From: Deltaproteobacteria bacterium
GTDB taxonomy: Bacteria > Bdellovibrionota > FAC87 > UBA2466
Direction: 5' to 3'
Length of the DNA stretch: 64,000 nucleotides
Assembly (NCBI GenBank): GCA_016196825.1
Contig: JACPWY010000019.1
Span: 22,644-86,643 of the forward strand
The position numbers and the translations under genes were made by a program. The notes under the pieces were generated by a model that was given only the letters and a program-made list of their open reading frames with translations, did no database searches and was not told the DNA's origin. This document shows, piece by piece, positions 5,750 through 59,527 of this stretch; the first letter of the stretch is position 1; every line of letters starts with the position of its first letter.

Positions 5750-6403
5750 ATGATTCTTCTGTCGTATCCCCTCTCCCCAACGACGCCCGCTTACGGCGGT
5801 GGAAAGCGCCCGCAATTTGAACAAGTGCGCTCACTCGAAAAGGGGGACAGTTGCAACATGCTCGAGCTTTTGCTCACCAACCATTCCGGCACCCACATCG
5901 ATATGCCAGCCCACTTTATTAAGAGCGGACCAACGGTGACCCAGGCCCCATTGGATTTTTGGTTTACGACCAACGTGGGCGTGATGGATCTGAAACGGTG
6001 CCCGGCCCCCGGGCAATTGCTCGGATCAGAGGATCTTCCCCTAGCCTCAATCTCTGCTGATTGCGAGGCTCTTCTCCTTAAGACGGGGTGGGGCGGGCAT
6101 AGAGGTGAAAACGTGTATTGGCAAAACCCTCCCGGGTTTCAGCCTGAGCTCGCGGCTGACTTGCGCCAGCAGTGTCCGCGTCTGAGATTCTTCGGATTCG
6201 ATCTCATCTCGCTCTCGAGCTTTGTGAACCGAGAGGAGGGACGAAGGGCCCACCGAGCCTTCTTGGGTGGTGACCAGCCGATTCATCCGATCGAAGACAT
6301 GGACCTTTCGGCACTTCCAGCCCCCATTCACAGCCTTCTCGTTTCTCCGTTTTTCCTCGAAGGGGGGGACGGAGCCCCTGTGACGGTCTGGGCCAATCTC
6401 TAG
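5750..6403 (+). CDS. cyclase family protein (kynurenine-formamidase-like fold)
   Basis: Contains HSGTHIDMPAHF, matching the HxGTHxDxPxH motif of the putative cyclase family. Confidence 0.6.
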   Translation: MILLSYPLSPTTPAYGGGKRPQFEQVRSLEKGDSCNMLELLLTNHSGTHIDMPAHFIKSGPTVTQAPLDFWFTTNVGVMDLKRCPAPGQLLGSEDLPLASISADCEALLLKTGWGGHRGENVYWQNPPGFQPELAADLRQQCPRLRFFGFDLISLSSFVNREEGRRAHRAFLGGDQPIHPIEDMDLSALPAPIHSLLVSPFFLEGGDGAPVTVWANL

Positions 6404-6592
6404 CCTGAAAGTGACAATAAATTTCGAGGAAAAATGCGTCAGGTGGGCTACTACAGCGACGTACTCACTTTTTTAAGCCGAGTCGTATCCATAGATACGG
6501 GGAGGTTTAAAAAAGTGAGTACGTCGCTGTAGTAGCCCACCTGACGCAAGCCTTGGCGGTTTTTACCGAAATTTATTGTCACTTTCAGGCTA
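6401..6592. repeat. 192-bp nested near-perfect palindromic element (MITE-like or large structured RNA)
   Basis: Outer arms tagcctgaaagtgacaataaattt (6401-6424) and aaatttattgtcactttcaggcta (6569-6592) are perfect inverted repeats. Inner 38-nt arms at 6437-6474 and 6508-6545 are perfect inverted repeats. The central loop contains gtatccatagatac. The element is AT-richer than its surroundings and intergenic between the cyclase and FkbM genes. Confidence 0.6.
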
Positions 6593-6654
6593 GGGGCCAG
6601 CCATTTGACATTGGTCGCGCCCGAAAACCATTATAGACAGATCAAAGGGGTCGT

Positions 6655-24969: not shown

Positions 24970-25651
24970 CGGCGGGGTGGACTCCACCTCGCGATTCCGC
25001 CCCTTGTTCTTTTCTGAGGTTTAGAAGAAAGTCGTCAATCAATTCCCCCACTTTCCGAGCGCCATCGACTGAAACCTGAAGGAGTCGCTCCAGTTCCGGG
25101 TCAGATCTCTCTGTGCCCTTTCTCTGAAGGAGTGAAAGGTGGGTTGAAAGCATTCGAAGGGGCTGTTTCAAATCATGGGAGGTAATCGATGCGAATTGTT
25201 CGAGCGCGCGGTTGGATCGGCTAAGCTGTTCCTCCAAAGCCCGTTGTTTTTCCAGAGAAATCAGGAGGCCCTTTTCGAGGCGAATTTTTTCAAGTGCAAT
25301 CTCAATGGTCGAGCGAATGGCGGTGTCACGCACTGGTTTCACGAGGTATCCGTAGGGAGCTGTATTCTGGGCGCGGAAGAGCGTTGCGTCGTCTGAGAAC
25401 GCTGTCAGATACACAATCGGGGTGTTGTTCGATTCTTTGATCTGGATCGCAGCCTCAATCCCATCCATTTCTCCTTTGAGCTTAATGTCCATCAAGATGA
25501 GATCCGGCACGGTCTCCGCCGCCTTCTTGATGGCCTCGGCACCGGAAAAGGCTATGCCAGCACATTCGTAGCCCAGCTGGACCAATTTGGTTTCTAGATT
25601 CATCGCCGCGACGGCTTCGTCTTCGACGACTAAGATGCGCGTTTTATTCAT
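24935..25651 (-). CDS. response-regulator receiver protein with C-terminal HisKA (DHp) segment but no ATPase domain
   Basis: [18 protein letters not shown]…[11 protein letters not shown] is a REC domain. [16 protein letters not shown] is an H-box. The ORF ends about 90 aa later with no N/G boxes. It is 4-bp coupled to the upstream kinase. Confidence 0.6.
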
Positions 25652-28185
25652 TGCTGACCCCCCACGGCGGCAGCCCTTTCGGGTGAAGGAAATCGAATTT
25701 GATAATGGGTTCCGGCTATCCCGGTGGGAGGGCTCATCAATTCCGCGTCAAGCTGACGACTGAGCATTGTGACGAGCTTCAGTCCCAAGGAGCGGGCTTT
25801 CGTTACGTCGAACCCACTCGGAATGCCAACGCCATCATCAGAAACCGCCAATTCGAGATTCTCACCATTTGGGGACTGACGCATTGATATACACACTTTC
25901 CCTGTTTTCCTTCCCTTGAATGCGTGCTTGAGCGAATTCGACACCAGTTCGTTAATGATGAGACTGCAAGGAACAGCGGTATCTATAGGCAGAGAAATAC
26001 TCTCTGTCTGGAGAACGGGCTCAAATTTCGAAGGGTCAACCCCATAGGAATGGTAGAGATTCAGGACCAACTCCCTCACATAGGAATGAAAATCAATCTC
26101 TGCAATGCTCTTGGATTGGTAAAGTTTTTCGTGGATGAGAACCATCGAGATGATGCGATTCTTACTCTCGGCGAATGCTTCATGGAGTTCGGGGTCAGCA
26201 ACATGGGTGGATTGGAGGTCGAGAAGGCTCGAGATGATATTGAGGTTGTTCTTCACACGGTGATGGATTTCACGGAGAAGAACCTCCTTTTCTCTGAGTG
26301 AGGCCTCAACTTGTTTCTGCGCATTCTTGCGACTCGTAATATCGCGAATGGTACTGGAAATAATAACACCAGCCGGAGTTTGCAAAGGGCTGAGGCTGAT
26401 CTCAACGGGAAACTCACTTCCATCTTTCCGCAAACCGTACAACTCCATTCCGCTTCCCATGGGGCGTGCCTTGGGATTTGCGAAATAATTGTTGCGATGC
26501 GCGGGATGTTTTTGTCGAAAACGCTCCGGTATGAGTGCCTCGACATATTGGCCGAGTAGCTCATTGCGCTGATACCTGAAGACCTCCTCCGTCTGTGCGT
26601 TGATTAAGACAATCTTACCTGCCCTGTCTGTAATCACCATGGCATCGGGTGCCGATTCGACGAGGCCCCTGAGGTTTTCTTCTGCTCTCTTTTGTGCCGT
26701 GATATCCCGAGCGATCTTGGAGGCCCCGACAATGTTCCCGCTTGCGTCTTTTATGGGAGAAACGGTGATGGACATCTCCACAATAGTCCCATCTTTTCGA
26801 ATGCGCGCGGTTTCATAATGCTCAATCCGCTCCCCGTGCTTGAGCCTTTCCAAAATATGAGCCTCTTCATCGGCAAGGGAAGAGGGAACTAACAAAGAGA
26901 TGGGTTTTCCCAATATCTCATCATTTGCATAACCAAAAATTCGTTGGGCACCTTCGTTCCAGCTAGTCACTTTGCCGTCCAGTGTTTTTCCGATAATCGC
27001 ATCGTCGGAGAAAGTGACAATCGCCGCAAGCTTGGCAAGTTCCCCTTCGGCTCGCTCACGCTCCCTTACCTCAAGCTTCAGTTTCTCTTTTTCTGAATTC
27101 AAATCCTCCAGGATATTGAAGGCGGCCCGTTGCAGGTCTTCCATTTTTTCGCGTTCAGCACTAAAGTCTTCCAAAATGTTGAAAGTCGCAGCTTGGGTGT
27201 CCTCAATCTTCGATTTCTCAGACGCAAAGTCTTCAAGAATATTGAAGGTAGCATGTTGAGTGCTTTCGCTTTTCAACCGTTCCTGAGCGAAGTCATCCAG
27301 AATATTGAAGGTTGCCCGCTGATTTTCCTCAAGACGTAGTCTTTCAGTGGCAAAGTCTTCAAGAATATTCACGGCCGCCCGCTGCATATCTTCCAACGAC
27401 TGGACTTGCTTGCTTTCGGTGAGATCACGAGTGATCTTGGAGAATCCGATGAGATTGCCCGTATTATCTCTGATCGCGGAGATAATGATATTAGCCGAGA
27501 ACCTTGAGCCGTCTTTCCTGACTCGCCAACCCTCGTCTTCGAATCTCCCTACCCGTGCAGCGACATCAAGCTCGTGTTGGGGTTTACCATGATTAACATC
27601 TTCCTCTGTGTAGAACTTTGAAAAGTGTTGGCCGATAATCTCATCGGCCGGATACCCTTTGATCCGCTCCCCACCGGCGTTCCAACTGAGAACGGTGCCT
27701 TTTGTATCAAGTATGAAGATGGCATAGTCTTTGACGCTCTCAACGAGAAGACGGAGCTTTTCCTCGCTTTCACGGAGGGCAGCATCGGCGTGCATTCTTT
27801 CCGTGAGATCCCGGATGACTTTACCAAACCCCACGAGCCGACCGTCGCTATCACGAATGGCCCCAATGACGGCATTCGCCCAAAAACGGCTGCCGTCTTT
27901 GCGAACCCGCCAACCCAGATCCTCGGAGCGTCCTGTTTCCTTGGCAATTTTAAGCTCTCGTTCGGGTTTTCCGGCCTCGATATCCCCCTTGGGATAGAAC
28001 TGAGAGAAATGGCTGCCCAGGATCTCTTCGGATCGGTAACCTTTGAGTCGCTCCGCGCCCGCGTTCCAGCTCACAACCCTTCCTTCGGGATCGAGCATGA
28101 CAATGGCGTAGTCGACGACAGTGGATGCAAAGAGGCGAAAACGTTCTTCAGCCCTGTGCGGATCTTCGTGATGAGGTGAAAGCAT
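25648..28185 (-). CDS. cytoplasmic multi-PAS sensor histidine kinase (HisKA_2-type) with internal 21-aa tandem repeats
   Basis: Multiple PAS/PAC blocks ([12 protein letters not shown]…). H-box [27 protein letters not shown] and ATPase domain [11 protein letters not shown]…DDGVGIP. Five repeats of ..[10 protein letters not shown].. lie at aa 266-372. Confidence 0.75.
27070..27400. repeat. five tandem ~63-bp in-frame repeats inside kinase CDS
   Basis: DNA units of the type gtcttc(c/a)a(g/a)aatattgaag(g/t)… recur. They are translated as (Q/T)xA(A/T)FNILEDFxxE(R/K)x(K/R)xE(D/E) x5. Confidence 0.75.
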
Positions 28186-28200
28186 GACAAAGCTAATGAA

Positions 28201-29865
28201 TTACGCCGCTGGTCCCGAGCTCCTTTTCAGTTCCTCGATCTCCTTTTTAAGCTCAATCATCTTGAGCTCGCGTCCCACGGTGAGCTTTTGAAATCGCTCG
28301 AGTTCGGCCAGACGAACAAGCTCTCTGGTTCGTTGTTCCGCGACCTCTTTCTCGGCGCGTTTTTGGGCGGTCACGTCACGAGCAGCGGCGAAAACCCCCA
28401 ATACGTTTCCACGGACATCCTTATAAACGGAGGCGTTGTAAAGAACGTCGGTCAGCTTTCCATATTTGTGTCGAATCGTGAGCGGGTAATCAGATACGAA
28501 GCTTTTTGCAAATACCTGTTTGTAGCCCTCCCGCGCCTTCCCAGGCTCCGTGAAATAGTTCGAGAAGTCGGAGCCGATCAACTCCTGTCGCGAGGTGCCC
28601 GTGACTCTCATGGTCGCTTCATTAACGTCCATGATTTTGCCGTCAGGACTGATGGTCACGAGTGGATCTAAAGAGGCCTCAATCAAGCTTCGCGAATATT
28701 GTGACGCTTGTTTCTGCGCGGTCACGTCACGAGCAGCGGCGAATACGCCTGACACATTCGCGGTTCCATCCTTATAAACGGAGGCGTTGTAAAGAACGTC
28801 GCTCAGCTTTCCGTCTCTGTGCCGAATCGTGAGCGGATAGTCAGCGACAAACCCTTTGGCAAAGACTTGTTGATAACCTTCTCGTGCTTTCTCAGGCTCC
28901 GTGAAATAGTTCGAGAAGTCGGACCCGATCAATTCTTCTTGGGAAACACCGGTAACCTTGGTTGTGGCCTCGTTAACGTCCGTGATCTTACCATCGGCGC
29001 TAATGGTCACGAGTGGATCTAAGGAAGCCTCGATCAAGCTGCGGGCGTATTGCGACGCTTGTTTCTGCGCGGTCACGTCGCGAGCGGCGGCAAACACGCC
29101 CAGCACATTTCCGCGAACGTTCTTATAAACAGACGCATTGTAAAGAACATCGGTCAGCTTTCCGTCCTTGTGCCGAATCGTGAGGGGATAGTCGGAGACA
29201 AACCCTTGAGCGAATACCTGCTTATATCCCTCTCGCGCTTTCTCAGGCTCCGTGAAATAGTTCGAGAAGTCGGACCCGATCAATTCTTCTCGGGAAATAC
29301 CCGTAACCTTGGTTGTGGCCTCGTTAACGTCTGTGATCTTACCATCGGCGCTAATGGTCACGAGTGGATCTAAGGACGCCTCGATCAAGCTTCGGGCATA
29401 TTGAGCAGCTTGCTGCGAAGCCTCTTTCTGGGCCGTCACATCGCGTGTAATGGACGAGACACCCACGACGTCGCCTATTTTATTCTTAATTGGCGACACC
29501 GTCAGGGAGACGTCGATAATCACGCCATCTTTTTTAATGCGCTTCGTATCGTAATGCTCAGTTTTCTCACCTCGTTTAATCTTTTCTATGACGGGCGCCA
29601 ATTCGTTGGAATGGTCTTTCGGCACCAGGGTGTAAATTGATTGGCCGATCATCTCATCTGTTGTGAATCCGTAAATTCGTTCGGCGCCTTCGTTCCAGCT
29701 GGTGATCGTGCCGTCCAGATCCTTGCCTACGATCCCATCGTCGGCGGACTCGACAAGTGATGCGAGCCGGTCGCGATCATCCTCGAAACTGCTCGCCATC
29801 GATCCTTTTTCCTTCGAATACTTTCTGTATTGTGATTTTATCGGCACTTGGGTTTGCTCATGCAT
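28201..29865 (-). CDS. PAS-domain-only signalling protein with three near-identical tandem PAS repeats and C-terminal coiled coil
   Basis: An N-terminal PAS block is followed by three copies of a ~106-aa PAS unit (TAQKQASQYARSLIEASLDPLVTISADGKITDVNEAT…VFAAARDV). The tail is ELVRLAELERFQKL… with no output domain. Confidence 0.7.
   Translation of the reverse strand: MHEQTQVPIKSQYRKYSKEKGSMASSFEDDRDRLASLVESADDGIVGKDLDGTITSWNEGAERIYGFTTDEMIGQSIYTLVPKDHSNELAPVIEKIKRGEKTEHYDTKRIKKDGVIIDVSLTVSPIKNKIGDVVGVSSITRDVTAQKEASQQAAQYARSLIEASLDPLVTISADGKITDVNEATTKVTGISREELIGSDFSNYFTEPEKAREGYKQVFAQGFVSDYPLTIRHKDGKLTDVLYNASVYKNVRGNVLGVFAAARDVTAQKQASQYARSLIEASLDPLVTISADGKITDVNEATTKVTGVSQEELIGSDFSNYFTEPEKAREGYQQVFAKGFVADYPLTIRHRDGKLSDVLYNASVYKDGTANVSGVFAAARDVTAQKQASQYSRSLIEASLDPLVTISPDGKIMDVNEATMRVTGTSRQELIGSDFSNYFTEPGKAREGYKQVFAKSFVSDYPLTIRHKYGKLTDVLYNASVYKDVRGNVLGVFAAARDVTAQKRAEKEVAEQRTRELVRLAELERFQKLTVGRELKMIELKKEIEELKRSSGPAA
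28440..29400. repeat. three tandem ~318-bp near-identical repeats (each encoding one PAS domain)
   Basis: DNA blocks beginning gtcacgtcacgagcagcggcgaa… recur at about 28365, 28715 and 29065 with few substitutions. Protein repeats differ at about 10% of positions. Confidence 0.75.
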
Positions 29866-30013
29866 GGGCCACCTCGCTCAATTTTGTCGGAATTATTCTA
29901 GGCCACACCTTCGCCAAAAGCATTCCTGGATTTTCGTCTTTTCTGGGTCCAACAAAAAAGAAATATTGTTGCGCAGCACGGCAGACCTTCGCTGTGATCA
30001 TTGCCACTTAGAC

Positions 30014-30165
30014 ACTTTCTACTCGGAACGATCAAAACACCCTGGCCCTTCGTTCTCCGGTATCGCTTGATCGCCAACTTTTAAAAGAAAGGGCCCGTTC
30101 TCCCCGGTCCGGGACATTTTGCCTCGCTCCTCCCGACGAAAGGGATTTAGGGATAGGCTCTTAGC
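30014..30165. repeat. MITE-like palindromic repeat, copy A (variant core)
   Basis: Shares the left arm ctttctactcggaacg…cctggcccttcg and right arm ggacattttgcctcgctcctcccgacgaaaggg…taggataggctct with copy D (56697-56874). It has a different central segment. It lies in a divergent intergenic region. Confidence 0.6.
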
Positions 30166-30250
30166 CCAACGCATTAACGCGCTAGACTGCCTAAAACACT
30201 TCAGAATTTCGCCTGTTTTGCCGATAATAGAGAAGTCCTCCACCCAAACC

Positions 30251-39141: not shown

Positions 39142-40374
39142 TCAGAGAGTCGAGCTTGGTGCTGTTCCATAGATCTCCGCCAGAGTGGGGGTGACAGCTC
39201 GGGTGAAGAGTCTAGCCCCGTTGATGTTGAAATGATTGACGTCGTAATAGAGGCCCCGAACCTCGTCTTCCGAAAGACTGGAGAAAAGATCGGCCGGCAC
39301 AACGCCTGCCACAAAGAGATTGGGAGCGGGAAAGCGCCTCCTCCAGTCTTGGCGCAACACGATTGTGTGATCCGCGCGATCGAGAAACCGAGGCATGTCC
39401 AAGAGCACGACCTTTGTCCCGTGGGTGAGCGCGAGGTCCACCGCCTTGGCGAAAAAATAGGCGTCGTAAGGGGGAAGCGGTCGGTTGAGCGAGGAGAAAT
39501 TGTTTTGTGTGGCGGGGGAAAGAATAGTCCCTGTCGCACCGGTCGAAATATTTTTTTCTTGGAAGGACGGGTCTTCAGGGAAAGTTCTTGCGCTAAGAAG
39601 AGCGCCCGTTGAGGAGATGGTGGGATCGGATGGGTGAGAGTGTCTAGAACCTATCTCATAAATAGTTTCTACTCGGCTGGTCAAAAAGCCCAGGCTCTTC
39701 GTCCTCCGCGCTCGGCTGCTCGACGTGCCCAGAGGGCACGCCTCCGCGGCCTCGCTTGTGCGTCCTTGATCCAGGGCTTTTTGACTCAGCCTCGCTACGA
39801 AACTATTTATGAGATAGGTTCTATTTCTCAGAAGGCCTAAGACATGCCGTGGAGCCCCTAGATAGGAGTAGGCCCAGAGTCTGAATTTCGAGGGAAGATC
39901 GAGGCCGTTGAGCTCCCCGATGTGTTCTCCCGCGATCCACCAGTAGAGCGAGTAGTAGTGGGGTTCCTTTCGGCCCGCATCGCCCTCGGGTGGATCGATG
40001 ACGACCGTGTGCACTCGGCGTCGTTGGAGGAGCTCTTTCAAAAGAAGATAGATCAAATCTTCCCCTCGCCAGTTTGCGCCAAGATTCAAGGTGACCAATT
40101 TTTTTCCAGGCACCAGGGTCTCGGCCAAGAGATCGGTGTTCACTGCGTTCCAGATGTAAGACGATCCCAAAACAAGGAGATCGATGTCGCCGGTTTCTTC
40201 GAATATTGAATGAGCCATGAACTGGTAGTGGCCGCCGTGGCTCGGTGCGGAATGAAACTTTTGCTCCGGTCGATAGCCCGGCAGGCTCGGAAGAGCCCAC
40301 GGCAGAACTAACAGGAATGCGAGCAGAGCGCAGAACAGCCAGCCCTGCATGCGAGTGGAAAAGGCTGGCTCCAT
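39142..40374 (-). CDS. DltD/AlgJ-like (SGNH-type) extracytoplasmic protein carrying an in-frame MITE-like insertion
   Basis: N-terminal signal/TM (WLFCALLAFLLVLPWALP). C-terminal DAYFFAKAVDLALTHGTKVVLLDMP…LYYDVNHFNINGARLF resembles DltD/AlgJ acyltransferase-partner proteins. Residues about 178-245 are encoded by repeat copy B (39645-39823) with no stop. Confidence 0.45.
   Translation of the reverse strand: MEPAFSTRMQGWLFCALLAFLLVLPWALPSLPGYRPEQKFHSAPSHGGHYQFMAHSIFEETGDIDLLVLGSSYIWNAVNTDLLAETLVPGKKLVTLNLGANWRGEDLIYLLLKELLQRRRVHTVVIDPPEGDAGRKEPHYYSLYWWIAGEHIGELNGLDLPSKFRLWAYSYLGAPRHVLGLLRNRTYLINSFVARLSQKALDQGRTSEAAEACPLGTSSSRARRTKSLGFLTSRVETIYEIGSRHSHPSDPTISSTGALLSARTFPEDPSFQEKNISTGATGTILSPATQNNFSSLNRPLPPYDAYFFAKAVDLALTHGTKVVLLDMPRFLDRADHTIVLRQDWRRRFPAPNLFVAGVVPADLFSSLSEDEVRGLYYDVNHFNINGARLFTRAVTPTLAEIYGTAPSSTL
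39645..39823. repeat. MITE-like palindromic repeat, copy B (full)
   Basis: Perfect 24-bp terminal inverted repeats (agaacctatctcataaatagtttc / gaaactatttatgagataggttct). Inner arms are tactcggctggtcaaaaagcccagg / ccagggctttttgactcagcctcg. Conserved core cttcgtcctccgcgctcggctgctcgacgtgcccagagggcacgcctccgcggcctcgcttgtgcgtcct. Confidence 0.7.
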
Positions 40375-40454: not shown

Positions 40455-40534
40455 TCAGTCGGCGCAGTTTGAATACTTTTTGGTATACCGATTTGTATTA
40501 AAGAATAGATTTTGGTATACCGAAAAGTATTCAA
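40455..40534 (+). promoter_or_regulatory. AT-rich putative promoter/operator with duplicated palindromic site TTGGTATACCGA
   Basis: gaatactttttGGTATACCGAtttgtattaaagaatagattttGGTATACCGAaaagtattc carries two copies of GGTATACC (self-complementary), flanked by inverted gaatactttt / aaaagtattc. It lies immediately upstream of the AAA_14 gene. Confidence 0.4.
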
Positions 40535-41677
40535 GTGGGGATTCCTTTGAAACGCTATCTGACAACTTGGTTGAAAACGGCACTGAAGGAAAAGATGGTT
40601 TTTGTGGGTGGGCCGCGCCAGGTCGGAAAGACGACTTTAGCATTTCAACTCCTGGGGAACGCGGATCCTGAGCAATCGGCCTATTTCAATTGGGATATTC
40701 ACGGGACAAAGACGCGGATTCTCAACCATGAATTGCCGGTGGATCAGAAACTCTTAGTGTTTGATGAGATTCACAAGTACCGACAATGGCGGAATTTTCT
40801 GAAAGGGCTTTTCGATCAATACAAGTCAAAAAAGGAGATTCTCGTTACCGGGTCTGCGCGACTGGATGTTTTTCGAAGGGGGGGCGACGCTCTCACTGGT
40901 CGGTACCACTATTATCGATTTCATCCCCTGTCGCTCTGTGAGATCAGTCAGCAGCCAAAATCGTCCGATCTTGATCATTTGCTTAAGTTTGGGGGATTTC
41001 CAGAGCCATTTCTCAAGGGAGAAGAGCGCGCTTGGAAGGTGTGGCAGAATGAACGCGTTACTAGAGTCGTTCAAGAGGACCTGATTTCCTTGGAGAGGGT
41101 GAACGAGCTCAGTCAACTCAGTCTCCTTGCGGAAATATTGCCTATCAGAGTCGGAAGTCTCCTCTCACTCAACAACCTTCGAACTGAGCTCAAGGTCTCT
41201 TACGAGGCTGTCGCAAGGTGGATAGAGATCTTCGATAATCTCTATTACTCCTTTCGCATTTCCCCCTTTGGGTTTGCCCCCCTGCGGACGGCCAAGAAGG
41301 AAAAGAAGCTTTACCTCTGGGACTGGTCTTCTGTTCCCAATGAGTCGGCAAGAGTGGAAAATTTTGTGGCCAGCCATCTGTTGAAATATTGTCATGCGAG
41401 ATATGATCACTTTGGAGAACGGTTGGAGCTACTCTTCTTACGCTCACCGATTGGCAAAGAGATCGATTTCCTCGTGTGCGATCGAAAAAAGCCGGTCTTC
41501 GCCGTGGAATGTAAGTCAGGGGATCGGGAGGTGAGCTCGTCGATTAAATACTTTGCCCCACGAATGCCCATCCCGCGCTTTTTTCAGGTCCATCTCGGGA
41601 AAAAGCATGTCGAGGTGAAGGATTATCGCACTGAGATTATCCCCATGACCCAGTTCGGGAAATGGCTGGGTGTCTAG
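40535..41677 (+). CDS. AAA_14/DUF4143 family ATP-binding protein
   Basis: Walker A GGPRQVGKTTLAFQLL and Walker B LLVFDEIHKYRQWRNFLKGLFD. 380 aa. Its stop abuts the ACP gene's GTG start. Confidence 0.65.
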   Translation: MGIPLKRYLTTWLKTALKEKMVFVGGPRQVGKTTLAFQLLGNADPEQSAYFNWDIHGTKTRILNHELPVDQKLLVFDEIHKYRQWRNFLKGLFDQYKSKKEILVTGSARLDVFRRGGDALTGRYHYYRFHPLSLCEISQQPKSSDLDHLLKFGGFPEPFLKGEERAWKVWQNERVTRVVQEDLISLERVNELSQLSLLAEILPIRVGSLLSLNNLRTELKVSYEAVARWIEIFDNLYYSFRISPFGFAPLRTAKKEKKLYLWDWSSVPNESARVENFVASHLLKYCHARYDHFGERLELLFLRSPIGKEIDFLVCDRKKPVFAVECKSGDREVSSSIKYFAPRMPIPRFFQVHLGKKHVEVKDYRTEIIPMTQFGKWLGV

Positions 41678-43467: not shown

Positions 43468-43532
43468 TAGAACGTATTTCATAAATAGTTTCTACTCGGC
43501 TGGTCAAAAAGCCCAGGCTCTTCGTCCTCGCG
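43468..43532. repeat. MITE-like repeat, copy C (left half only, solo arm)
   Basis: tagaacgtatttcataaatagtttctactcggctggtcaaaaagcccaggctcttcgtcctcgcg matches the left 65 bp of copy B. No right arm is present. Confidence 0.6.
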
Positions 43533-45003: not shown

Positions 45004-47748
45004 TTACGGCCAGTAACGCATGATCGCGAAGTCGTAGCTGGCCGCCTGCGCATTACCCACCGCCACAATCTTGCCGTCGGACTGCAGCGCCAACCCAAAG
45101 ATGCTGTTGTTGTTGGCGGCGCCGCCGAGGCCTGTGTAATCCGTCTCGACCTGGCCGGTGCTGTTGAAGCTCGCGTCGAGGGCGCCGGCTGAGGTGAGCC
45201 GCATCATCGCGAAGTCTTTCTCCGTGTTTGTCGAGTAGCCGCCGATGATGATGTTGCCCGAGCTATCGATCACAAGCGCCGTGCCATCCGCCGCACCCGC
45301 GCCAATCGCGGTGGTGTAGGTGCCGGCAGTGCCGAAGGTGGCATCGACGGCACCCACAGAGGTCAAGCGCGTCACCGTCATCTGGTTCGAACCCGTCGCG
45401 CTCACGCCGCCGAGGACGATGTTACTGCTCGAGTCGATGGCCATTGCCTTCACGATGTCGGTGCCGGCAGTGACATCAACCGTGGTGTAGCCCGAGGTGC
45501 CGAAGTCCGTGTCGATCGCACCGACCGAGCTCACCTGGGCCACCGCGAACTGATAGGTGCCGGAGAGAGCCGTGCCGGCCATCACGATTTTGCCGCTGGA
45601 AAGAATCGAGAGGGCATAGCAATCATTCTGTGAATTTGCGATCGGGCTGAACACCGCTCTACCCGTGGTGTTGAAGGTCGTGTCGGCCGTTCCATCCGTG
45701 CCGTAGCGAGCGATGGCGAAACGCTTCTTGCCCGCGAGAGAGATGCTGTAACCGACGGCAACCGCTTTGCCATTGCTGTCGAGCGCGAGGCCGCGGAGCA
45801 CATCGTCTTGGCCGTTGAACTGCGTTATGGCGATGCCGCTCGTGCCGTAGGCGGTGTCGATCGCACCGGCCGAAGTCAACCGTACCACCGAGAAGTTGAG
45901 GTCACCCGAGGTGGCCGCCGAACCGCCGACTAGAACTTTGCCATCGGCCTGGATGACTACCGCGTAGGCAACATCGTTTCCACCCGCCGAAACATCGATC
46001 GAAACCTTACCGCCCGTACCGAATGAGGCGTCGAGCGCGCCGGCGGTGCTGTAGCGGGCGACCGCGAAATCCGTGTCGGAGCCGTTGTAGCTCGAACCGG
46101 CGACCACAATCTTGCCATCGCTCTGCAGGGCCACAGCGTATCCGTAGGCATCCGCAGAACCTATCGACGAGGCCACTTGGCCCGTGGTGTTGAAGGTCGT
46201 ATCGAGCGAGCCGGGGTTGCCGATGCCTGTGCCGGTCATCGCGCGGGTCGCGCTCGAGGTCGAGGCATCCGGAAGAGTGTAGTTGACCGTTAGCGTATCG
46301 CTCGCGGCACCGAGGGCGGTCGGGCTGAAGCGGACCACGATTGTGCAGGTGGCGAGGCTTCCGATTGAATTGCCACAGGTGCCGCCGGTGCCGGGGTACG
46401 CACCGCCCTTATATGTGTACGGCGCCGAGAGGGCCGCCCCACTCACGACCGTGGCCGAGCCGTGCTGCGAATTGGTCACCGTGAAGGACTTATCCGTATT
46501 TGTGGTGTTGATGTACTTCGAACCGAAGCTGTAGGTCGCGCCATCTGAAATCGAAAGTGAGGCATAGCCGAGGCCCGTGCCAGCCACATCGCGGGAGGCG
46601 GTCTGCGTGGCGACGCCATCATTATAGGTGAGGTTGATGGTGCTGCTCGTGGCGCCCGTAGCCGTTGGGGAGTATGTCACGATGAGCGTGCAGGTCGCGC
46701 TGCCGGCAAGCGAGGCGCCACAGGTGCCGCCAGTGCCGGGATATGAACCACCCTTGTAACCGTACGGAGCGGCGAGGGCCGGAGTTGTGTTCGAGAACGA
46801 AGTTGCCGTTGCGCTACCCGCGTTTGTGACCGTGAACGTCTTGTCGGCCGTGAGTGTCTCGTAGGTGTCGGGGTAGGTGTAGGTGGCGCCGTCCGAAACC
46901 GAGAGAGAGGCCGGGGTTTGGCCCGTGCCCTGCATCGCGCGCGTGGCCGATTGTGTGCTTGTGCCATCATTGTAAGTGAGGCGGAGCGTGTCCGAGCTCA
47001 GCACCGCGGCCGACGGGGTGTAGCGCACAACCACCGTGCAGGTGCCACTGGCCGCGAGGGTCGCGCCGCAGGTGCCCCCGGTGCCGGGGTAGGCGCCGCC
47101 CTTGAAGGTGAACGGGGCCGCCATCGCGGGGGTGCCAGCCGCCATCGCCGTCGCGCCCACCGTGCCCGTGTTAGTCACGGTGAAACTCTTGTCCGAGGTG
47201 TTGCCGATCACAATCGTTCCATAGTCGTAGGTGGCGCCATTCGAAATCGAGAGGACCGCGCCGTCGGAGGCCGCACCAGTCAGCTGCGTGATGTCCGAGG
47301 TGAGGACGGTCTTGCTGTCGACCCCGTTATAGTAGGTCAAGAAGAGCTCGCCTGTCGCGGCGCCACTTGAGGTCGGGCTGAAAGCAAGAACCACGGTGCA
47401 GGTCTCACCGACCTGAATCACAAGGCCGCAAGTTCCGCCGACGCCGGGGTAGTAACCGCCGAGAAAGGTGAACGGGGCAGTGAGCGACTTGGGTTGCGGG
47501 GCACTCGCGAGGAGGCCACCGTTGTTGGAAAGGGTCAGGTTGGCCGTGACCGTTCCGCCCACGCTTGCCGTGCCGAAATCGATCGGTCCGTTTGTCGCCA
47601 CGAGATTGGCCGGACCAGAGATGAGCTTATCGGAATCTTTTTTCTGCTTGCGGCAAGAAACTGCGGACGCAGCTAAGATAAGCGCGAACCCAACGTATTG
47701 GGCGAAGCGCAGAGAGGCTTTAATTTGTGAGCAGCTACCAACGTACAT
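45004..47748 (-). CDS. large secreted/lipoprotein with N-terminal Gly/Thr-rich Ig-like repeats and C-terminal delta-60-type repeat region
   Basis: Signal/lipobox-like N-terminus (ALILAASAVSC). At least five repeats share FTVTN-G…PY.YKGG.YPGTGGTCG…C…V.(R/T)(Y/F).P(T/S). The C-terminal half has repeated TDFAVARY…G.LD..FG..G motifs, which are delta-60/beta-propeller-like. Confidence 0.6.
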   Translation of the reverse strand: MYVGSCSQIKASLRFAQYVGFALILAASAVSCRKQKKDSDKLISGPANLVATNGPIDFGTASVGGTVTANLTLSNNGGLLASAPQPKSLTAPFTFLGGYYPGVGGTCGLVIQVGETCTVVLAFSPTSSGAATGELFLTYYNGVDSKTVLTSDITQLTGAASDGAVLSISNGATYDYGTIVIGNTSDKSFTVTNTGTVGATAMAAGTPAMAAPFTFKGGAYPGTGGTCGATLAASGTCTVVVRYTPSAAVLSSDTLRLTYNDGTSTQSATRAMQGTGQTPASLSVSDGATYTYPDTYETLTADKTFTVTNAGSATATSFSNTTPALAAPYGYKGGSYPGTGGTCGASLAGSATCTLIVTYSPTATGATSSTINLTYNDGVATQTASRDVAGTGLGYASLSISDGATYSFGSKYINTTNTDKSFTVTNSQHGSATVVSGAALSAPYTYKGGAYPGTGGTCGNSIGSLATCTIVVRFSPTALGAASDTLTVNYTLPDASTSSATRAMTGTGIGNPGSLDTTFNTTGQVASSIGSADAYGYAVALQSDGKIVVAGSSYNGSDTDFAVARYSTAGALDASFGTGGKVSIDVSAGGNDVAYAVVIQADGKVLVGGSAATSGDLNFSVVRLTSAGAIDTAYGTSGIAITQFNGQDDVLRGLALDSNGKAVAVGYSISLAGKKRFAIARYGTDGTADTTFNTTGRAVFSPIANSQNDCYALSILSSGKIVMAGTALSGTYQFAVAQVSSVGAIDTDFGTSGYTTVDVTAGTDIVKAMAIDSSSNIVLGGVSATGSNQMTVTRLTSVGAVDATFGTAGTYTTAIGAGAADGTALVIDSSGNIIIGGYSTNTEKDFAMMRLTSAGALDASFNSTGQVETDYTGLGGAANNNSIFGLALQSDGKIVAVGNAQAASYDFAIMRYWP

Positions 47749-54519: not shown

Positions 54520-56685
54520 TCAGGTACTCTTTTCAGAGGGCCGTGGGGGAAAGGCGGGGGTGCAGGATTCATCCGCCAGTGTGAGGTTGGGATTATAGTA
54601 TGGGTCGTTCGCGAGGGCGTCGCCCCAACGCTTCATCATCCAGTCGTTCTCCCGGCGGAACCGATCGATTCGCTCGGGGGCCTCATCTGATCCACGGGTT
54701 GCGGATTCCAGGTGATAGAGCTCGGCGTAAGGGGTCCATAGGTTGCGATAGCCAGCCTTCCTCAGTCGAATCCCGAGGTCAACGTCATTGAAAGCCACAG
54801 GAAGGTTCACCTCATCAAAACCCGCCACCTCTTGGAAAATAGTCCGTCGGATCACAAGGCACGCTCCGGTCACCGCAGTGTAGGCCTGCATGACATTCGC
54901 TCGCCCGATGAAGCGCCCCGTGTTCGCGGGCTGATGTTTTTGGGGGTGGCCGGCGACGCCACCGATACCCAGGACAATCCCCGCGTGCTGGATCGTGTTG
55001 TCGGCGTAATAGAGCTTGGCCCCCACGGCTCCAACTCCCTTTTGATTCGCGACGCGGACCATCTCATCCAGCCAGTTGGGTGCGATGACCCGAAGGTCAT
55101 TATTGAGAAAGGCCAGAATGTCCCCCCGAGCTTCGCGCGCGGCGAAATTATTCATCGCGGAAAAGTTAAAGGGGTGGTTGAAAGGGAGAACCCGCACTTT
55201 GGGATGGGACGAAATTGCCTTTAGATAGTCGATGGTTTCCGGTTCCGAGCTTTGATTGTCGACAATCAGAATCTCGAGGGGGTCGTAGTCTGTGTTGTGG
55301 AGCAGATCGTGCACAATGGCGGTGAGAAGGTCTTTTTTGTCGCGTGTGCAGATCATGATCGAAACCAGTGGTTGGGAATTGGGTTTCGGGTACACCACCC
55401 GGTGGTAGCTCTCATACCCTTCAGTCACCCGGGCCTCAACGCCTTGCGAGAGTAGGTACTCTCGAATGGATCGCCGGGCGTTTTCATGGGCATACCCCTT
55501 CGCCCCAGGTCCGAGCGCCGTGGAGCCCGCGATCGCCCGCCAGTGGTAGAGAATTTTCGGGATGTGACCGATCCGATCGGGAGATGTGTGCGCGATCACG
55601 CGCAGAAAGAGATCATAGTCCTGGCTCCCCTCATAACCTCGCCGAAATCCACTGACTGCATTCACTAGACTCCGCCGAATGCAGGCCAGGTGAGTGATGA
55701 GGTTGTAGGAGAGAAACAGGTCAGGGTTCCATTCGGTCTTGAAGTGTGGCTCAAACCGGTGGCCAAAGGAATCGATCTTATCCTCGTCGCTGTAAATGAG
55801 GTCGAGATCCGGCTGGCGATCGAGGCGTGCGGCCACCTCAAGCAGAGCATTCTCTGACAGCTCATCATCGTGATCGAGGAAGACGACAAAGTCCCCAGTG
55901 GCCAGCTCCAAGGCGGAGTTTGAAGCCTCTGAAATGTGGCCATTGATCGGGCGTCGGGTGATCTTGATCCGCGGGTGCTCTTCAAACTTTTGGAGAGTGG
56001 CTTTCACCGACGATAGGGAGGAGTTGTCATCGGCGATACAAAGTTCCCAATATGGGTAGAGTTGGCGAGTCACAGATTCAATCGCCCGAGTTAGGTAGGG
56101 CTCAGGCGTGTTGTAGACCGGAAGGATGACTGAAAACTTGGGGTGAGACGAGAGCCTTTCGAACTGTTTCCTCAGGAGGTCCCGCTTTGAGTCATCGATT
56201 GTGTCGTAGTTCTCAACCCAGATCGCGTACTCATTCTTCACGCACTCGCCCGATTGAAAAACCAGATCCTGAATGAGAGCGCGCACCAGCCGCCGTTGGC
56301 CCTGGGTTTCGATAAGCTGGCGGACAAAGGTCACTAGTCTTTTTGGATGCACGAGAAACCGAGCCAGGATCGGCATCAGGCTCAAAGCGAGGCTACCGGC
56401 AGTGGCCAAGGATCGGAAAGAGATGGCCTGCGGAGTTGCACCCTCAACCGCAAGGGTCTCCACCCACCCGGGAAATTTGATAAACGCTTCGCCCCTTTGT
56501 CGAGGTGAAGAAAGAGTCACTCGATAGGGCTCGCGGTTTTTCCCGAAACGTGCCGTCACACAAAGCGTGAAGGGCTGTCGCGAAGCCGAGTTTTCAAAAT
56601 CGACCCGCACCCAGCCGAGGGGAAAATCGACGACGGGCAGCTCCCAGCGGCCTGTGGTTCCGTTATTGCGAAAGTGAAGCGCCAT
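54520..56685 (-). CDS. large glycosyltransferase with two GT2 (GT-A) domains
   Basis: First domain FSVILPVYNTPEPYLTRAIESV…CIADDNSS. Second domain VSIMICTRDKKDLL…ILIVDNQS. A 170-aa N-terminal domain is unknown. Confidence 0.7.
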   Translation of the reverse strand: MALHFRNNGTTGRWELPVVDFPLGWVRVDFENSASRQPFTLCVTARFGKNREPYRVTLSSPRQRGEAFIKFPGWVETLAVEGATPQAISFRSLATAGSLALSLMPILARFLVHPKRLVTFVRQLIETQGQRRLVRALIQDLVFQSGECVKNEYAIWVENYDTIDDSKRDLLRKQFERLSSHPKFSVILPVYNTPEPYLTRAIESVTRQLYPYWELCIADDNSSLSSVKATLQKFEEHPRIKITRRPINGHISEASNSALELATGDFVVFLDHDDELSENALLEVAARLDRQPDLDLIYSDEDKIDSFGHRFEPHFKTEWNPDLFLSYNLITHLACIRRSLVNAVSGFRRGYEGSQDYDLFLRVIAHTSPDRIGHIPKILYHWRAIAGSTALGPGAKGYAHENARRSIREYLLSQGVEARVTEGYESYHRVVYPKPNSQPLVSIMICTRDKKDLLTAIVHDLLHNTDYDPLEILIVDNQSSEPETIDYLKAISSHPKVRVLPFNHPFNFSAMNNFAAREARGDILAFLNNDLRVIAPNWLDEMVRVANQKGVGAVGAKLYYADNTIQHAGIVLGIGGVAGHPQKHQPANTGRFIGRANVMQAYTAVTGACLVIRRTIFQEVAGFDEVNLPVAFNDVDLGIRLRKAGYRNLWTPYAELYHLESATRGSDEAPERIDRFRRENDWMMKRWGDALANDPYYNPNLTLADESCTPAFPPRPSEKST

Positions 56686-56696
56686 TTTTTGGTTTA

Positions 56697-56874
56697 AGAG
56701 CCTATCCTAAAACCCTTTCTACTCGGAACGGTCAAAATGTCCTGGCCCTTCGTCCTCCGCGGTCGGTGTCCTCGACGTGCCCAGGGGGCACGTCTGCGGG
56801 ACCTCCCTTGTGCGTCCTCGGTCCAGGACATTTTGCCTCGCTCCTCCCGACGAAAGGGTTTTAGGATAGGCTCT
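56697..56874. repeat. MITE-like palindromic repeat, copy D (full)
   Basis: Perfect 23-bp termini agagcctatcctaaaaccctttc / gaaagggttttaggataggctct. Core cttcgtcctccgcggtcggtgtcctcgacgtgcccagggggcacgtctgcgggacctcccttgtgcgtcctcg. Confidence 0.7.
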
Positions 56875-58527
56875 AAGCGTGACCCGTTTGATCAAATTCA
56901 ACGCTCGGCGAGCCATTTTCACCGAACGCCTATTGAGAAATGCCTTCATCGCTGCGTTCTCGGCCTCGAGCCCTTGGAGGCGGCTGCGCAAGTGGGCCTC
57001 CACAGCGGGCTGCCTGGGGAAGGCGAGCGGTGGAAAGACCTGACCAAAAAGCTTCCGAAGCTCTGCGCGGTGGTGGTTTCGAGATCCGCCGCCGACGCGC
57101 TCCTGAAACTGGGCCTCTTGCTCCAGGGCCTCCTCGAAACGGGGTGCAACTCCGATGGAGTGGCAAAGAACGGTGTAAAGGTCATGCAAAGTGCGAAATG
57201 GCGCCGACGCACTCAATGTCTCAAAATCTCGAATGCAGGCAAAGACGTTCCGAAACACGAACCAGTGCACGGGAACGGGGCCAGCATTGTCCCATTCGAG
57301 ATCAAAATTGGTGAATCCCTCTCCTTCGACAATGGCGTTGAGGAAGACGGCATCCAGCGCCTCAGCTCTGAGTGCTTCGTTCGACTCTCGATACCGGGCG
57401 GCGGCCCAACGCAGATAGTGCGTGAAAAGGAATTGGAAGCGATCCCATTCCTCGAAATAAGCGGCGCGTGCGAGCTCAAAACGAAAAGGGGTCCCCGGAA
57501 CGAGCGGCGATTCGGTTTTGCCCTTGGTAACGGTGAGCCCCGAGGGTTTTTCCTGGAACCGGGTCTCGGAGTTCCCAAAGTGCCAGGCCAAAAGGTCGCG
57601 AGGCGGCCGGACCGTTTCCAGAATCGATGAATCCGCCTTCGTTGAGGCCATCACCAAAAAGGAGTTGGACATCTCGGCAAGCCAACCTTCACGAGCCGCG
57701 GTCAGCGTGGCCAAAGAATCGGGAAAGGAGCGCACCCGCGGGGTCGTATAGTTTTCATAAGGCCTGTGACACGCCAGCGAGGCCGCGGCCTCGGGGGCCC
57801 GCTCCAGCATCCTTTCCGTGAGCACACAGCTCGGGATCTTATAGTCGGGAAAGGGGTAGAGGAATTCGGCGCATTCAAAACCCGAACTTTGAAGAAGCGA
57901 GGAAAGCCGTTTACGGGAGAAGGTTTTGGCGCCGGGGCGGGAGGAATAGCCCACCATTCCGTCATAAAGCGTTCCATTGTGGTCTTCAGCCGCGCCGCCC
58001 CAATATTTCAGGCCGAGGGCATTTTCGATCGCGAGGATCAATACTCCATCGGGTTTCAAAAACCGTTTCACCTGTTCGAGAAAGATCGGGTGCGCCAACT
58101 CGGTGGGTGTGATGAACCGTTCGGCGTATTCGAGGACGCCGATCACAATGGCCACATCATACTGTCGCCGTGGAGTGCAGGTCGCAAACTCCGCCACCTC
58201 GCCGGTCCAGTTTGAAAGACCCTGCAGACGCAATTCGATTCCACGGTGACGATCTTCCGTCCCCTCGATCGTGTGAAGGGAGCGGGCGTTTTCCGCGAGG
58301 TATCGAGAGACAGCGCCCATGCCAGCGCCGATCTCCACAACATCTAGCCCCTGAAAGTGAAACGGGCGGACAAGATTCGAGCGTTCGCGGCAAAGGTGGT
58401 AGCGGACCGACCACTCCCCATACTGGGTCGCGCCCGGGTTTTCCCCCGAACCTAGATTCGGCGAGTCGGCCAGAATGGCCCTTACGCGCGCCTCTTCAGC
58501 TGCCCCGTCGGTGTACTCGATCGCCAT
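56719..58527 (-). CDS. SAM-dependent methyltransferase domain protein with large C-terminal extension; 3' end encoded by repeat copy D
   Basis: LDVVEIGAGMGAVSRYLAENARSLHTIEG is SAM motif I. 602 aa. The last about 50 codons (…CPLGTSRTPTAEDEGPGHFDRSE*) lie inside the MITE-like element, so the native C-terminus is uncertain. Confidence 0.55.
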   Translation of the reverse strand: MAIEYTDGAAEEARVRAILADSPNLGSGENPGATQYGEWSVRYHLCRERSNLVRPFHFQGLDVVEIGAGMGAVSRYLAENARSLHTIEGTEDRHRGIELRLQGLSNWTGEVAEFATCTPRRQYDVAIVIGVLEYAERFITPTELAHPIFLEQVKRFLKPDGVLILAIENALGLKYWGGAAEDHNGTLYDGMVGYSSRPGAKTFSRKRLSSLLQSSGFECAEFLYPFPDYKIPSCVLTERMLERAPEAAASLACHRPYENYTTPRVRSFPDSLATLTAAREGWLAEMSNSFLVMASTKADSSILETVRPPRDLLAWHFGNSETRFQEKPSGLTVTKGKTESPLVPGTPFRFELARAAYFEEWDRFQFLFTHYLRWAAARYRESNEALRAEALDAVFLNAIVEGEGFTNFDLEWDNAGPVPVHWFVFRNVFACIRDFETLSASAPFRTLHDLYTVLCHSIGVAPRFEEALEQEAQFQERVGGGSRNHHRAELRKLFGQVFPPLAFPRQPAVEAHLRSRLQGLEAENAAMKAFLNRRSVKMARRALNLIKRVTLRAYPKTLSSGGARQNVLDRGRTREVPQTCPLGTSRTPTAEDEGPGHFDRSE

Positions 58528-58567
58528 AGACGACAGAGGCTAGCTCAAAGGCGAAGAGGTGTGAATA

Positions 58568-58750
58568 CTAATCCCTCAGCTCGATTGAATTTGGCCACTG
58601 GGCGGGTGCTTTTGACCGACCACTTCGTCCTCCGCGTTCGGCTCCTCGACGTGTCCAGGGGGCACGCCTCCGGGGCCTCTCTTGTGCGTCCTCGTGGTCG
58701 GCCAAAATCCCCTCGCCGATTGGACCAAATTCAATCGAGCAGAGGGATTA
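58568..58750. repeat. MITE-like palindromic repeat, copy E (full, divergent arms)
   Basis: Termini ctaatccctcagctcgattgaatttgg / ccaaattcaatcgagcagagggattag (1 mismatch). Core cttcgtcctccgcgttcggctcctcgacgtgtccagggggcacgcctccggggcctctcttgtgcgtcctcg. It contains the stop codon of the downstream gene. Confidence 0.7.
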
Positions 58751-59527
58751 GTTTTGGTGTTCCAGCTGGGTCAGCGGGAAAAGCTGCACAGCCATACGGT
58801 AGACCTCGGTCGGCTCATTTTCGACCTCGGCCTGATCCATCAGCTCGTCCTGAAATCGTCGGATCATCTTTTTCGCACTGGCCAGCGTCTTCGGGTTCAT
58901 CGGGAAGGTGATCCAGGTGAAATCACGTTGCGGAACGGGGATCGTCCCAAGCTTTTCCTGGGCCAAAGTGAGGGTGTCGCCGTGTGACTTCTTGATCCAT
59001 TCGTTGGGTGTGTCTTCAGTTGTGGTCAGAGAGGGTTTCGAGCGACGCCAGCCTCCGCTTTCCAGCTGCTCTAAATAGCCGCTTCGGACGAGTCGCTCCA
59101 TCGCGTCGGCCGCCTTCTTACGCGGAATGCCCAGCCGCTGAGCGATCCAATCTGGGTCGCCCTGAAACGCATTCATCGTCGCTAAATTCAAGATCGCGAA
59201 GTTCTCCCACTCAGTGAGGAGAAAATACTTATCTGCCTCCATTCGGAGGTAGCGATCGGAATTGGGGCGCCGGTTCGAGCGGGCCGCCTTTTTCTCGATG
59301 AGATCCAGCAGCGCGCCCCGTTCGGGTGGGGGGAGTGCCATGCTGTCGGTGAGCTTGCGTGCCAGCTTAGCCGAGACCCGACGTTTACCGAGGAGAACCA
59401 GACTGAGGGTTCCGGCGCTGATGCCAAGCCGCCGGGCGTAACCTCTCACCGACATCCTTGGGTTGCGGCTTCTGAGGGCCGTGAGTTGGGACTGAAGGCT
59501 ACTTCGAATGGCCAGTTGTTCTTCCAT
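58748..59527 (-). CDS. HTH-domain protein resembling the TIGR02147 family
   Basis: SVRGYARRLGISAGTLSLVLLGKRRVS is an HTH. The overall 259-aa architecture resembles what I recall of TIGR02147 proteins. Unverified. Confidence 0.45.
   Translation of the reverse strand: MEEQLAIRSSLQSQLTALRSRNPRMSVRGYARRLGISAGTLSLVLLGKRRVSAKLARKLTDSMALPPPERGALLDLIEKKAARSNRRPNSDRYLRMEADKYFLLTEWENFAILNLATMNAFQGDPDWIAQRLGIPRKKAADAMERLVRSGYLEQLESGGWRRSKPSLTTTEDTPNEWIKKSHGDTLTLAQEKLGTIPVPQRDFTWITFPMNPKTLASAKKMIRRFQDELMDQAEVENEPTEVYRMAVQLFPLTQLEHQN

Follow-up and report, generated by a model that had tools for sequence, protein, structure and literature searches.

Background

Short palindromic repeats that remodel the ends or the interior of protein-coding genes are established in several bacteria, as RPE, QMITE, Correia/NEMIS, ERIC and RUP (PMC10969869, PMC5896051, PMC2229807). 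Here we describe a repeat with such effects in a stretch of 64,000 nucleotides (nt) from a Deltaproteobacteria bacterium of the Bdellovibrionota (assembly GCA_016196825.1, contig JACPWY010000019.1, positions 22,644 to 86,643 of the forward strand), which is called the window in what follows and whose positions are numbered from its first letter. One copy of the repeat, D, encodes the C-terminal tail and the stop codon of a methyltransferase open reading frame (ORF), a second, E, touches the stop codon of a helix-turn-helix (HTH) gene, and a third, B, lies in frame within a hypothetical gene. Probably this is a mobile hairpin repeat that inserted in TA-type sites, mostly stop codons, with the outcomes proposed below for D, E and B. 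The rewriting of gene tails by a repeat is an event type already known from other bacteria. The phylum of predatory bacteria joins the short list of groups in which palindromic repeats rewrite protein ends or interiors (Rickettsia, Coxiella, Neisseria and the enterobacteria), and our literature search found no paper on such elements in Bdellovibrio.

The closest match to the situations of D and E is found in Coxiella burnetii, where QMITE1 and QMITE2 reach 1-50 bp into functional genes at their 3' ends, giving stops or short C-terminal extensions. One of these is the 33-aa extension of EnhC in the Dugway strain, and the stable stem is a possible substrate of RNase III (PMC5896051). However, the sequence family and the host are unrelated to ours, hypervariable arms surround a conserved structured core in the present family, and its association with stop codons is much stronger and more precise. 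The RPEs of Rickettsia, palindromic repeats of about 100-150 nt, are found between genes as well as in frame in conserved protein genes, where the additional peptide is tolerated (Ogata 2000/2002; PMC10969869, PMC2229807). Copy B behaves exactly so, and D is a C-terminal version of the same situation. Unlike RPEs, which carry a conserved ORF and of which nearly half lie within genes, the present family has no enrichment of open frames, most of its copies stand at stop codons and not inside genes, and its host belongs to a different phylum. We know of no sequence similarity between the RPEs and the present family.

Correia/NEMIS of Neisseria and RUP of Streptococcus pneumoniae are elements of 100-155 nt with terminal inverted repeats and a TA target duplication. 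They are co-transcribed with their neighbours and fold into long hairpins, a 107-bp Correia form has been found fused to ORFs, and for RUP a mobilisation at TA sites through IS630-Spn1 has been proposed (PMC2229807). Their terminal repeats are conserved and match known insertion sequences, whereas here the termini vary, the interior is conserved and no partner insertion sequence is known. The ERIC (or IRU) sequences of enterobacteria are imperfect palindromes of about 127 nt in transcribed regions, with occasional intragenic in-frame fusions (PMC2229807). In contrast to the present elements, ERIC is one sequence family with conserved arms and is not reported to lie precisely on stop codons. 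REP and REPIN are GC-rich palindromes of 20-40 nt with a GTAG/CGTC head, inverted doublets and a RAYT gene, whereas the units described here are about 180 nt long and contain direct repeats of CGTCCTC; the neighbours scanned included no RAYT-like gene, no genome-wide RAYT search having been made. Taken by its characters, the present family has most of what defines a MITE (a miniature transposable element with inverted repeats), being small, non-coding, dispersed, polymorphic and bounded by terminal inverted repeats.

Element D and the 3' end of the methyltransferase gene

A repeat search of the 64 kb gave three full copies of the element (B, D and E), one degenerate copy (A) and one truncated copy (C). 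A covariance model of the family matched exactly these five and nothing further in the window; the scores are given with the features. The repeat is a MITE-like, non-coding, hairpin-forming unit of about 180 nt that is present in several metagenome-assembled genomes (MAGs) of Bdellovibrionota, and each full window copy folds to an almost perfect hairpin with a minimum free energy of about -97 to -109 kcal/mol. The features at D are the following.

56697..56874, minus strand: element D, a near-perfect hairpin of about 178 nt with inverted arms and the conserved core (covariance model, 117 bits)
56698-56873: element D proper (176 nt) under a 3-bp duplication model, with TAA flanks at 56695-56697 and 56874-56876
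56719..58527, minus strand: ORF of a class I S-adenosylmethionine-dependent methyltransferase, 602 aa (Pfam PF13489/PF08242)
56719..56877, minus strand: element-encoded C-terminal tail LRAYPKTLSSGGARQNVLDRGRTREVPQTCPLGTSRTPTAEDEGPGHFDRSE with the TAG stop 56719-56721, absent from all aligned orthologs
56663..56695, minus strand: remnant of the ancestral 3' end of the methyltransferase gene, KPKNGASLSQ with the TAA 56663-56665, read after in-silico excision
54520..56685, minus strand: two-domain family-2 glycosyltransferase, 721 aa, with its ATG at 56683-56685, 11-12 nt from the end of D

The methyltransferase ORF is identical to an NCBI MAG protein of Deltaproteobacteria bacterium annotated as methyltransferase domain-containing. 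A first-pass annotation of this DNA, made from the letters alone, had assigned the last 50 or so codons and the stop of the gene to D, and this was confirmed: 51-52 codons and the TAG lie within 56697-56874. The codons 56722-56874 (51 codons, RAYPK...FDRSE) and the TAG 56719-56721 are wholly within D, the preceding Leu codon straddles the boundary, and the stop falls in GAGTAG, a conserved motif of the element's internal loop. The encoded tail is hydrophilic and basic, with an isoelectric point of 8.2 and a grand average of hydropathy of -1.1.

Ten orthologs were aligned out of 717 methyltransferase homologs, and the 52-aa tail was present in none of them. The closest three (P0002, P0003 and P0004; 51-56% identity, 559-578 aa) are homologous to the window protein up to ...LIKRVT, where the homology ceases exactly at the D boundary, and they end 9-10 residues further. 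The locus of P0002 (L001) is syntenic with the window, with the methyltransferase, a two-domain glycosyltransferase, MotB, MotA and a FliG-like gene, and is free of the element.

In the window D is placed between ...GTCACGCT and the glycosyltransferase ATG. Removal in silico of 179 nt, that is the 176-nt element and one flanking TAA, restored ...KRVTLKPKNGASLSQ with the TAA at 56663-56665, the methyltransferase then ending in ...RVTLKPKNGASLSQ. The same removal restored a 23-nt overlap of the methyltransferase and glycosyltransferase genes, ATGGCGCTTCACTTTCGCAATAA; an overlap of 23 nt between the stop of the one gene and the start of the other is also seen in the orthologous loci L001 and L026, and one of 8 nt in L027. 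The remnant can no longer be reached in the frame of the methyltransferase, and it lies over the first 23 nt of the glycosyltransferase gene. The length of 179 nt was preferred because it matches both the TAA/TAA flanks and the overlap seen in the orthologs, and excision of 177 or 180 nt, which fuses the methyltransferase to the glycosyltransferase, was rejected. Flanking triplets are identical in all five copies of the D subfamily (TAA in D, L046 and L018; TTA in L037 and L030), which fits a 3-bp duplication and the figure of 179 nt. Since this excision restores both the ancestral frame and the overlap, the ancestral end of the methyltransferase is recoverable, and so is the translational overlap of the two genes. 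The view of the first-pass annotation that the ancestral C-termini are uncertain was too pessimistic, as the old methyltransferase end can still be read at 56663-56695, downstream of D.

In the proposed history, D would have landed at a TAA triplet lying out of the methyltransferase frame (CT-TAA-A), some 11 codons upstream of the stop of this gene, at the spot where its 3' end overlapped the start of the glycosyltransferase by 23 nt. The insertion of 179 nt would have shifted the frame, so that translation entered D and continued for 51 codons to the TAG in the distal arm. A protein of 563 aa ending in ...RVTL-KPKNGASLSQ* would in this way have become one of 602 aa ending in ...RVTL-RAYPK...DRSE*, about 11 ancestral residues being replaced with 51 element-encoded ones, and the gene overlap would have given way to a gap of 33 nt that holds the last 22-23 nt of the distal arm of the hairpin. 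The tail encoded by D is presumably translated and tolerated, and expression of the methyltransferase, the glycosyltransferase and the HTH gene may have been affected by the insertions.

A second assembly, GCA_016178225.1 (L025), shows 100% identity from the methyltransferase through element D to the start of the glycosyltransferase. Since L025 is identical there and yet differs elsewhere by an indel of 127 nt, the junction cannot be put down to an isolated artefact of assembly. With a real repeat family and an identical second assembly, neither chance nor an isolated assembly error accounts for the observation. The indel is a 127-nt segment in the 3' part of the glycosyltransferase gene (54558-54684) that is missing from L025, where the protein is cut to 684 aa; the window glycosyltransferase matches its ortholog to residue 715 of 720, so that the window holds the intact form. 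The L025 contig ends inside the core of element E (its position 1 is window position 58667). Breakage of short-read assemblies at the repeat would fit this, and copy numbers in MAGs are probably underestimated as a result.

Element E and the stop codon of the HTH gene

The situation at E is as follows.

58748..59527, minus strand: TIGR02147/DUF4423 HTH gene, 259 aa, with its TAA stop at 58748-58750
58564..58755, minus strand: element E, a 192-nt hairpin with 31-nt arms, the right arm at 58725-58755 (covariance model, 101 bits)
58571-58748: element E proper under a TA-duplication model, with TA flanks at 58569-58570 and 58749-58750

The TAA stop had been placed in the right terminus of E, and it does lie inside the right arm; it is composed of the flanking TA and the last base of element E. 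The C-terminus of the HTH protein (...FPLTQLEHQN*) is co-linear with 15 homologs, which end at the same position or a few residues on, for example with ...FPLTKLDQSH*, ...KLEEK* or ...KLEEN*. Under TA duplication the sequence before the arrival of E would have read ...CAA AAC TAG TAT..., coding for the same protein with a TAG stop. Most likely, the original stop codon of the HTH gene offered the TA at which E inserted, and the duplicated TA with the first element base would have re-made the stop, converting TAG to TAA. The HTH protein is thus not remodelled, and of its stop codon E gives a single base at the most. The claim that the elements remodel the 3' ends of at least two genes held for the methyltransferase, whose homology stops at the D boundary, and failed for the HTH gene. 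Identical C-termini in element-free orthologs had been named beforehand as the observation that would speak against remodelling, and the end-to-end alignment of the HTH protein is in spirit such an observation.

Element B and reading frames through the elements

In the case of B, the whole element lies within a coding sequence.

39645..39823, minus strand: element B, a full copy (covariance model, 115 bits) within the hypothetical gene 39142..40374 (minus strand)

The product of this gene, an NCBI hypothetical protein of 410 aa, carries copy B in frame over 59 codons. A single clear homolog was found, P0178 (356 aa, E=2e-48); it aligns with residues 1-183 before the element and about 290-402 after it, and does not have the insert. 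By this comparison copy B is a true in-frame insertion, which would have added 59 residues in the manner of the Rickettsia RPEs, and the wider statement that the elements remodel genes is borne out at 39142..40374. In the public MAG records, both the methyltransferase of 602 aa and the hypothetical protein of 410 aa hold repeat-derived segments that are not features of their families.

The D tail and the in-frame translation of B had been said to share a peptide theme, and 13 of 21 residues are indeed common to both (QNVLDRGRTREVPQTCPLGTS in D and QKALDQGRTSEAAEACPLGTS in B). The likeness comes from the conserved core, which the two genes read on the same strand and in the same frame up to an indel of 1 nt. 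Stop-free frames in the elements numbered 23 of 102, against about 18.6 expected from shuffled sequences, and are not commoner than expected; a coding palindrome of the RPE type was ruled out on this ground. Among 39 copies, B was the one confirmed internal in-frame copy. Long ORFs spanning the element at L029, L030, L032, L036 and L042, in which the element falls at about residues 7-115, were rejected as upstream read-through artefacts. At L015, L016 and L018, ORFs run 19-51 nt into the elements, so that tails like that of D recur.

The family and its insertion sites

A scan for the core pattern, with one genome per species, gave 16 copies that proved genuine, from at least 8 MAGs of Bdellovibrionota, and a scan of metagenomes added 21 further copies from several samples; 36 further copies outside the window, full or shorter-armed, could be measured. 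Five matches of the core pattern in Streptomyces were discarded by inspection as low-complexity acidic coding repeats with weak folds and no hairpin, and viral contigs scanned with the same pattern gave no matches. Near-identical copies occupy different loci of one MAG (L014 and L023). The elements measure 176-199 nt, with two shorter copies of 118-128 nt; they are under about 500 bp and have no transposase ORF. Short-armed variants (118-128 nt) that keep the core were seen at L005 (5650-5812) and L024 (5337-5464) and also at L028 and L043, and the L005 copy adjoins a putative tRNA-like sequence. All copies pair end to end, the 39 measured ones forming near-perfect hairpins with the conserved core, and B and E have near-perfect terminal arms of 25-31 nt. 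The termini of the subfamilies are TAATCCCTGAG, TAAACAGGA, TAGGGGCTGT and TAAGAGCC.

The two remaining copies of the window are incomplete.

about 30000..30170, minus strand: element A, with D-like arms and a different or degenerate core (covariance model, 18.5 bits, E=0.028)
43468..43530, minus strand: element C, a truncated stump of which the first 62 nt are left (covariance model, 14.3 bits, E=0.41)

Over its 62 nt, copy C has 97% identity to the corresponding arm of copy B. The arms of A and D are 85-94% identical. The core of A has been replaced or is degenerate (...GTATCGCTTGATCGCCAACTTTTAAAAGAAAGGGCC...), the flanking CGTYCTC motifs alone being retained, and the combination of D-like arms with another core implies that core and arms can evolve, or be exchanged, independently.

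The family as a whole is strongly associated with stop codons. In 20 of 39 copies an ORF of at least 100 aa has its stop ending between -3 and +12 nt from an element terminus. Matches between stops and termini numbered 25, against 1.57 expected from the density of ORF ends in the 39 copies, with peaks at +1 and +3. Typical element ends read TTAG.., TAG.. or TAA... Roughly half of the copies, including E and B, have TA at both ends, and L009 has TG at both; the TA flank is itself palindromic and for that reason not separable from the ends of the repeat, which limits its reading as a duplication. Insertion is polymorphic, the element being absent at the syntenic locus L001 and in the homolog of the B-host gene.

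The simplest reading of these sites is a preference for TA or TWA in a YTAR context, together with selection keeping the harmless insertions. Insertions would fall at stop codons because such TA sites are concentrated in the stop codons of these GC-rich genomes. This makes the family an unusually clean example of how stop-codon-targeted insertion lets a repeat spread in a compact genome and leaves the genes unbroken.

A conserved core within variable arms

A core of about 70 nt, ...CGAGGACGCACAAG-helix-hairpin-helix-CGCGGAGGACGAAG..., is nearly invariant across MAGs; part of this invariance is ascertainment, as two core motifs were fixed in the search pattern, and the stretch between them, which was free to vary, is also conserved. 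The 50-nt arms fall into at least seven unrelated sequence subfamilies, found in several MAGs around the one core and all still perfectly paired. Compensatory changes were found in 28 of 37 consensus pairs, and one position carries a conserved G.U pair (12 G.U, 3 G-C and 1 A-U). The unpaired nucleotides of the core (GAGGACGCACAAG and GCGGAGGACGAAG) are invariant, both motifs having been required by the search patterns. The two CGTCCTC motifs of the element are direct repeats, not inverted ones. The arms also contain a conserved internal loop that is asymmetric, with (A/G)CGAG on the 5' side and CAGU/GAGUAG on the 3' side when read on the GAGGACG strand (for example 39670-39685 with 39785-39800); it is kept across arm subfamilies that are otherwise without common sequence.

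The elements also differ between their two strands. The RNA fold was more stable on the GAGGACG strand in 40 of 40 copies, and arm mismatches were strand-asymmetric, with 52 A.C against 19 G.T on the opposite strand (p=1e-4). Both properties speak for a single-stranded form that is specific to one strand, whether of RNA or of DNA. The non-functional alternatives are templated correction of quasi-palindromes and a mutation bias linked to transcription.

Alternative explanations

Several points weigh against a mobile repeat inserting at TA-type sites. A fixed core combined with hypervariable arms turns round the pattern of a classical MITE, whose transposase reads the terminal repeats. Duplication length is inconsistent between subfamilies, being TA in some and TWA in the D group, with none obvious in L004, L010 and L048, and excision of D strictly by its arms (178 nt), in place of which we preferred 179 nt, gives ...RVTL*. 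A Pfam scan of ten neighbouring window genes showed neither a transposase nor an autonomous partner. The nearest methyltransferase ortholog is 56% identical, so the target site at nucleotide level is a reconstruction; the reconstructed empty junctions for D and E read ...CGGGTCACGCTTAAACCAAAAAATGG... and ...CACCAAAACTAGTATTCACACC..., and a metagenome scan for the reconstructed junction as an exact empty site gave no matches. Transposition would presumably have been catalysed by a transposase, and the exact duplication lengths used above are likewise provisional.

The reversed pattern of conservation (a fixed core, free arms and strand-asymmetric wobble pairs) is the unexplained part of the family and the single feature that could lead to something new. 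In a rival explanation, the repeat would be primarily a functional single-stranded structured module, of RNA or of single-stranded DNA during mobilisation, and not a passive MITE. The core and the internal loop would then be a catalytic motif or one for the recognition of protein or RNA, and the effects on gene ends by-products of the places where such a module is of use or does no harm, for example as an element for processing or stability at mRNA 3' ends or between cistrons. We consider this possible but doubtful. In its favour are the compensatory changes and the unpaired core positions (the latter with the ascertainment mentioned), the conserved G.U pair, the uniform strand preference of the fold, the excess of A.C mismatches and the many arm subfamilies sharing one core; in addition, B, D and E are all in sense orientation for the GAGGACG strand within minus-strand genes. 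However, orientation relative to the abutting genes is mixed at other loci (about 8 copies in the GAGGACG sense, 3 in the opposite one and 4 between genes that converge), and copy A retains its arms with the core lost. Templated correction can hold the arms of quasi-palindromes complementary in the absence of selection, and a C-to-T bias linked to transcription could yield the same wobble asymmetry. Rfam 15 gave no match at the gathering threshold over the whole window and none overlapping D or E at E<=10 in 56500-59000, and a scan of the elements showed no promoter consensus and no terminator-like U tract. In a tentative form of the same proposal, the selected part may be the core of about 70 nt, with its covarying helices, the invariant strands of the bubble with their two direct GAGGACG motifs and the ACGAG/CAGU loop, and not the termini. 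It would be a new strand-specific structured module, recognised through its fold by a mobilising enzyme or acting as an intercistronic or 3'-end RNA signal, and the differing hairpin chassis would park this module on stop codons.

In a second rival explanation, the 602-aa protein would never be made as such. The hairpin in the mRNA, with a minimum free energy near -106 kcal/mol and arms of about 50 bp, could be cut (for example by RNase III) or could block ribosomes, yielding a message that is truncated or lacks a stop, and with it a truncated or degraded methyltransferase or an incipient pseudogene. Cleavage of Correia/NEMIS hairpins by RNase III is documented, and the same fate has been proposed for the EnhC extension of Coxiella (PMC2229807, PMC5896051). 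We regard this outcome as unlikely, however, as the ORF is intact across all 550 conserved residues and identical in two assemblies, and as B lies in the middle of an open gene that is homologous on both sides, by which translation through the hairpin would seem to be tolerated. It is very improbable, and effectively refuted already, that the tail descends from ancestral coding sequence or is a chimera of the assembly, with an incidental likeness to the element: the sole support for this is the lack of a near-isogenic empty site, the closest ortholog being so distant, whereas the tail region matches the family model with 117 bits, the same element stands in intergenic DNA elsewhere, no aligned ortholog has the tail, and the second assembly, with its separate indel, has the identical junction.

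Other repeats in the window

An unrelated near-perfect palindrome of about 194 nt at 6400-6593, bracketed by CTAG, is built of nested arms (6400-6433/6560-6593 and 6435-6489/6494-6548). Its sequence differs from the family, and the family model gives no match to it, but its terminus holds the TAG stop (6401-6403) of the ORF 5750..6403 on the plus strand, which is the same parking on a stop codon. A further palindrome at 40469-40534, with 31-nt arms and a 4-nt loop, can also be read as a 32-nt tandem pair and stands directly upstream of the AAA_14/DUF4143 ATPase gene 40535..41677. The tandem repeats inside genes of the window are ordinary domain repeats: 63-nt units at 27092-27374 in the ORF 25648..28185, three 351-nt units at 28359-29360 in a gene with four PAS domains (28201..29865), and units of 168-174 nt and 345-360 nt at 45161-46068 and 46372-47480 in a DUF5122 beta-propeller/Ig-like gene (45004..47748).

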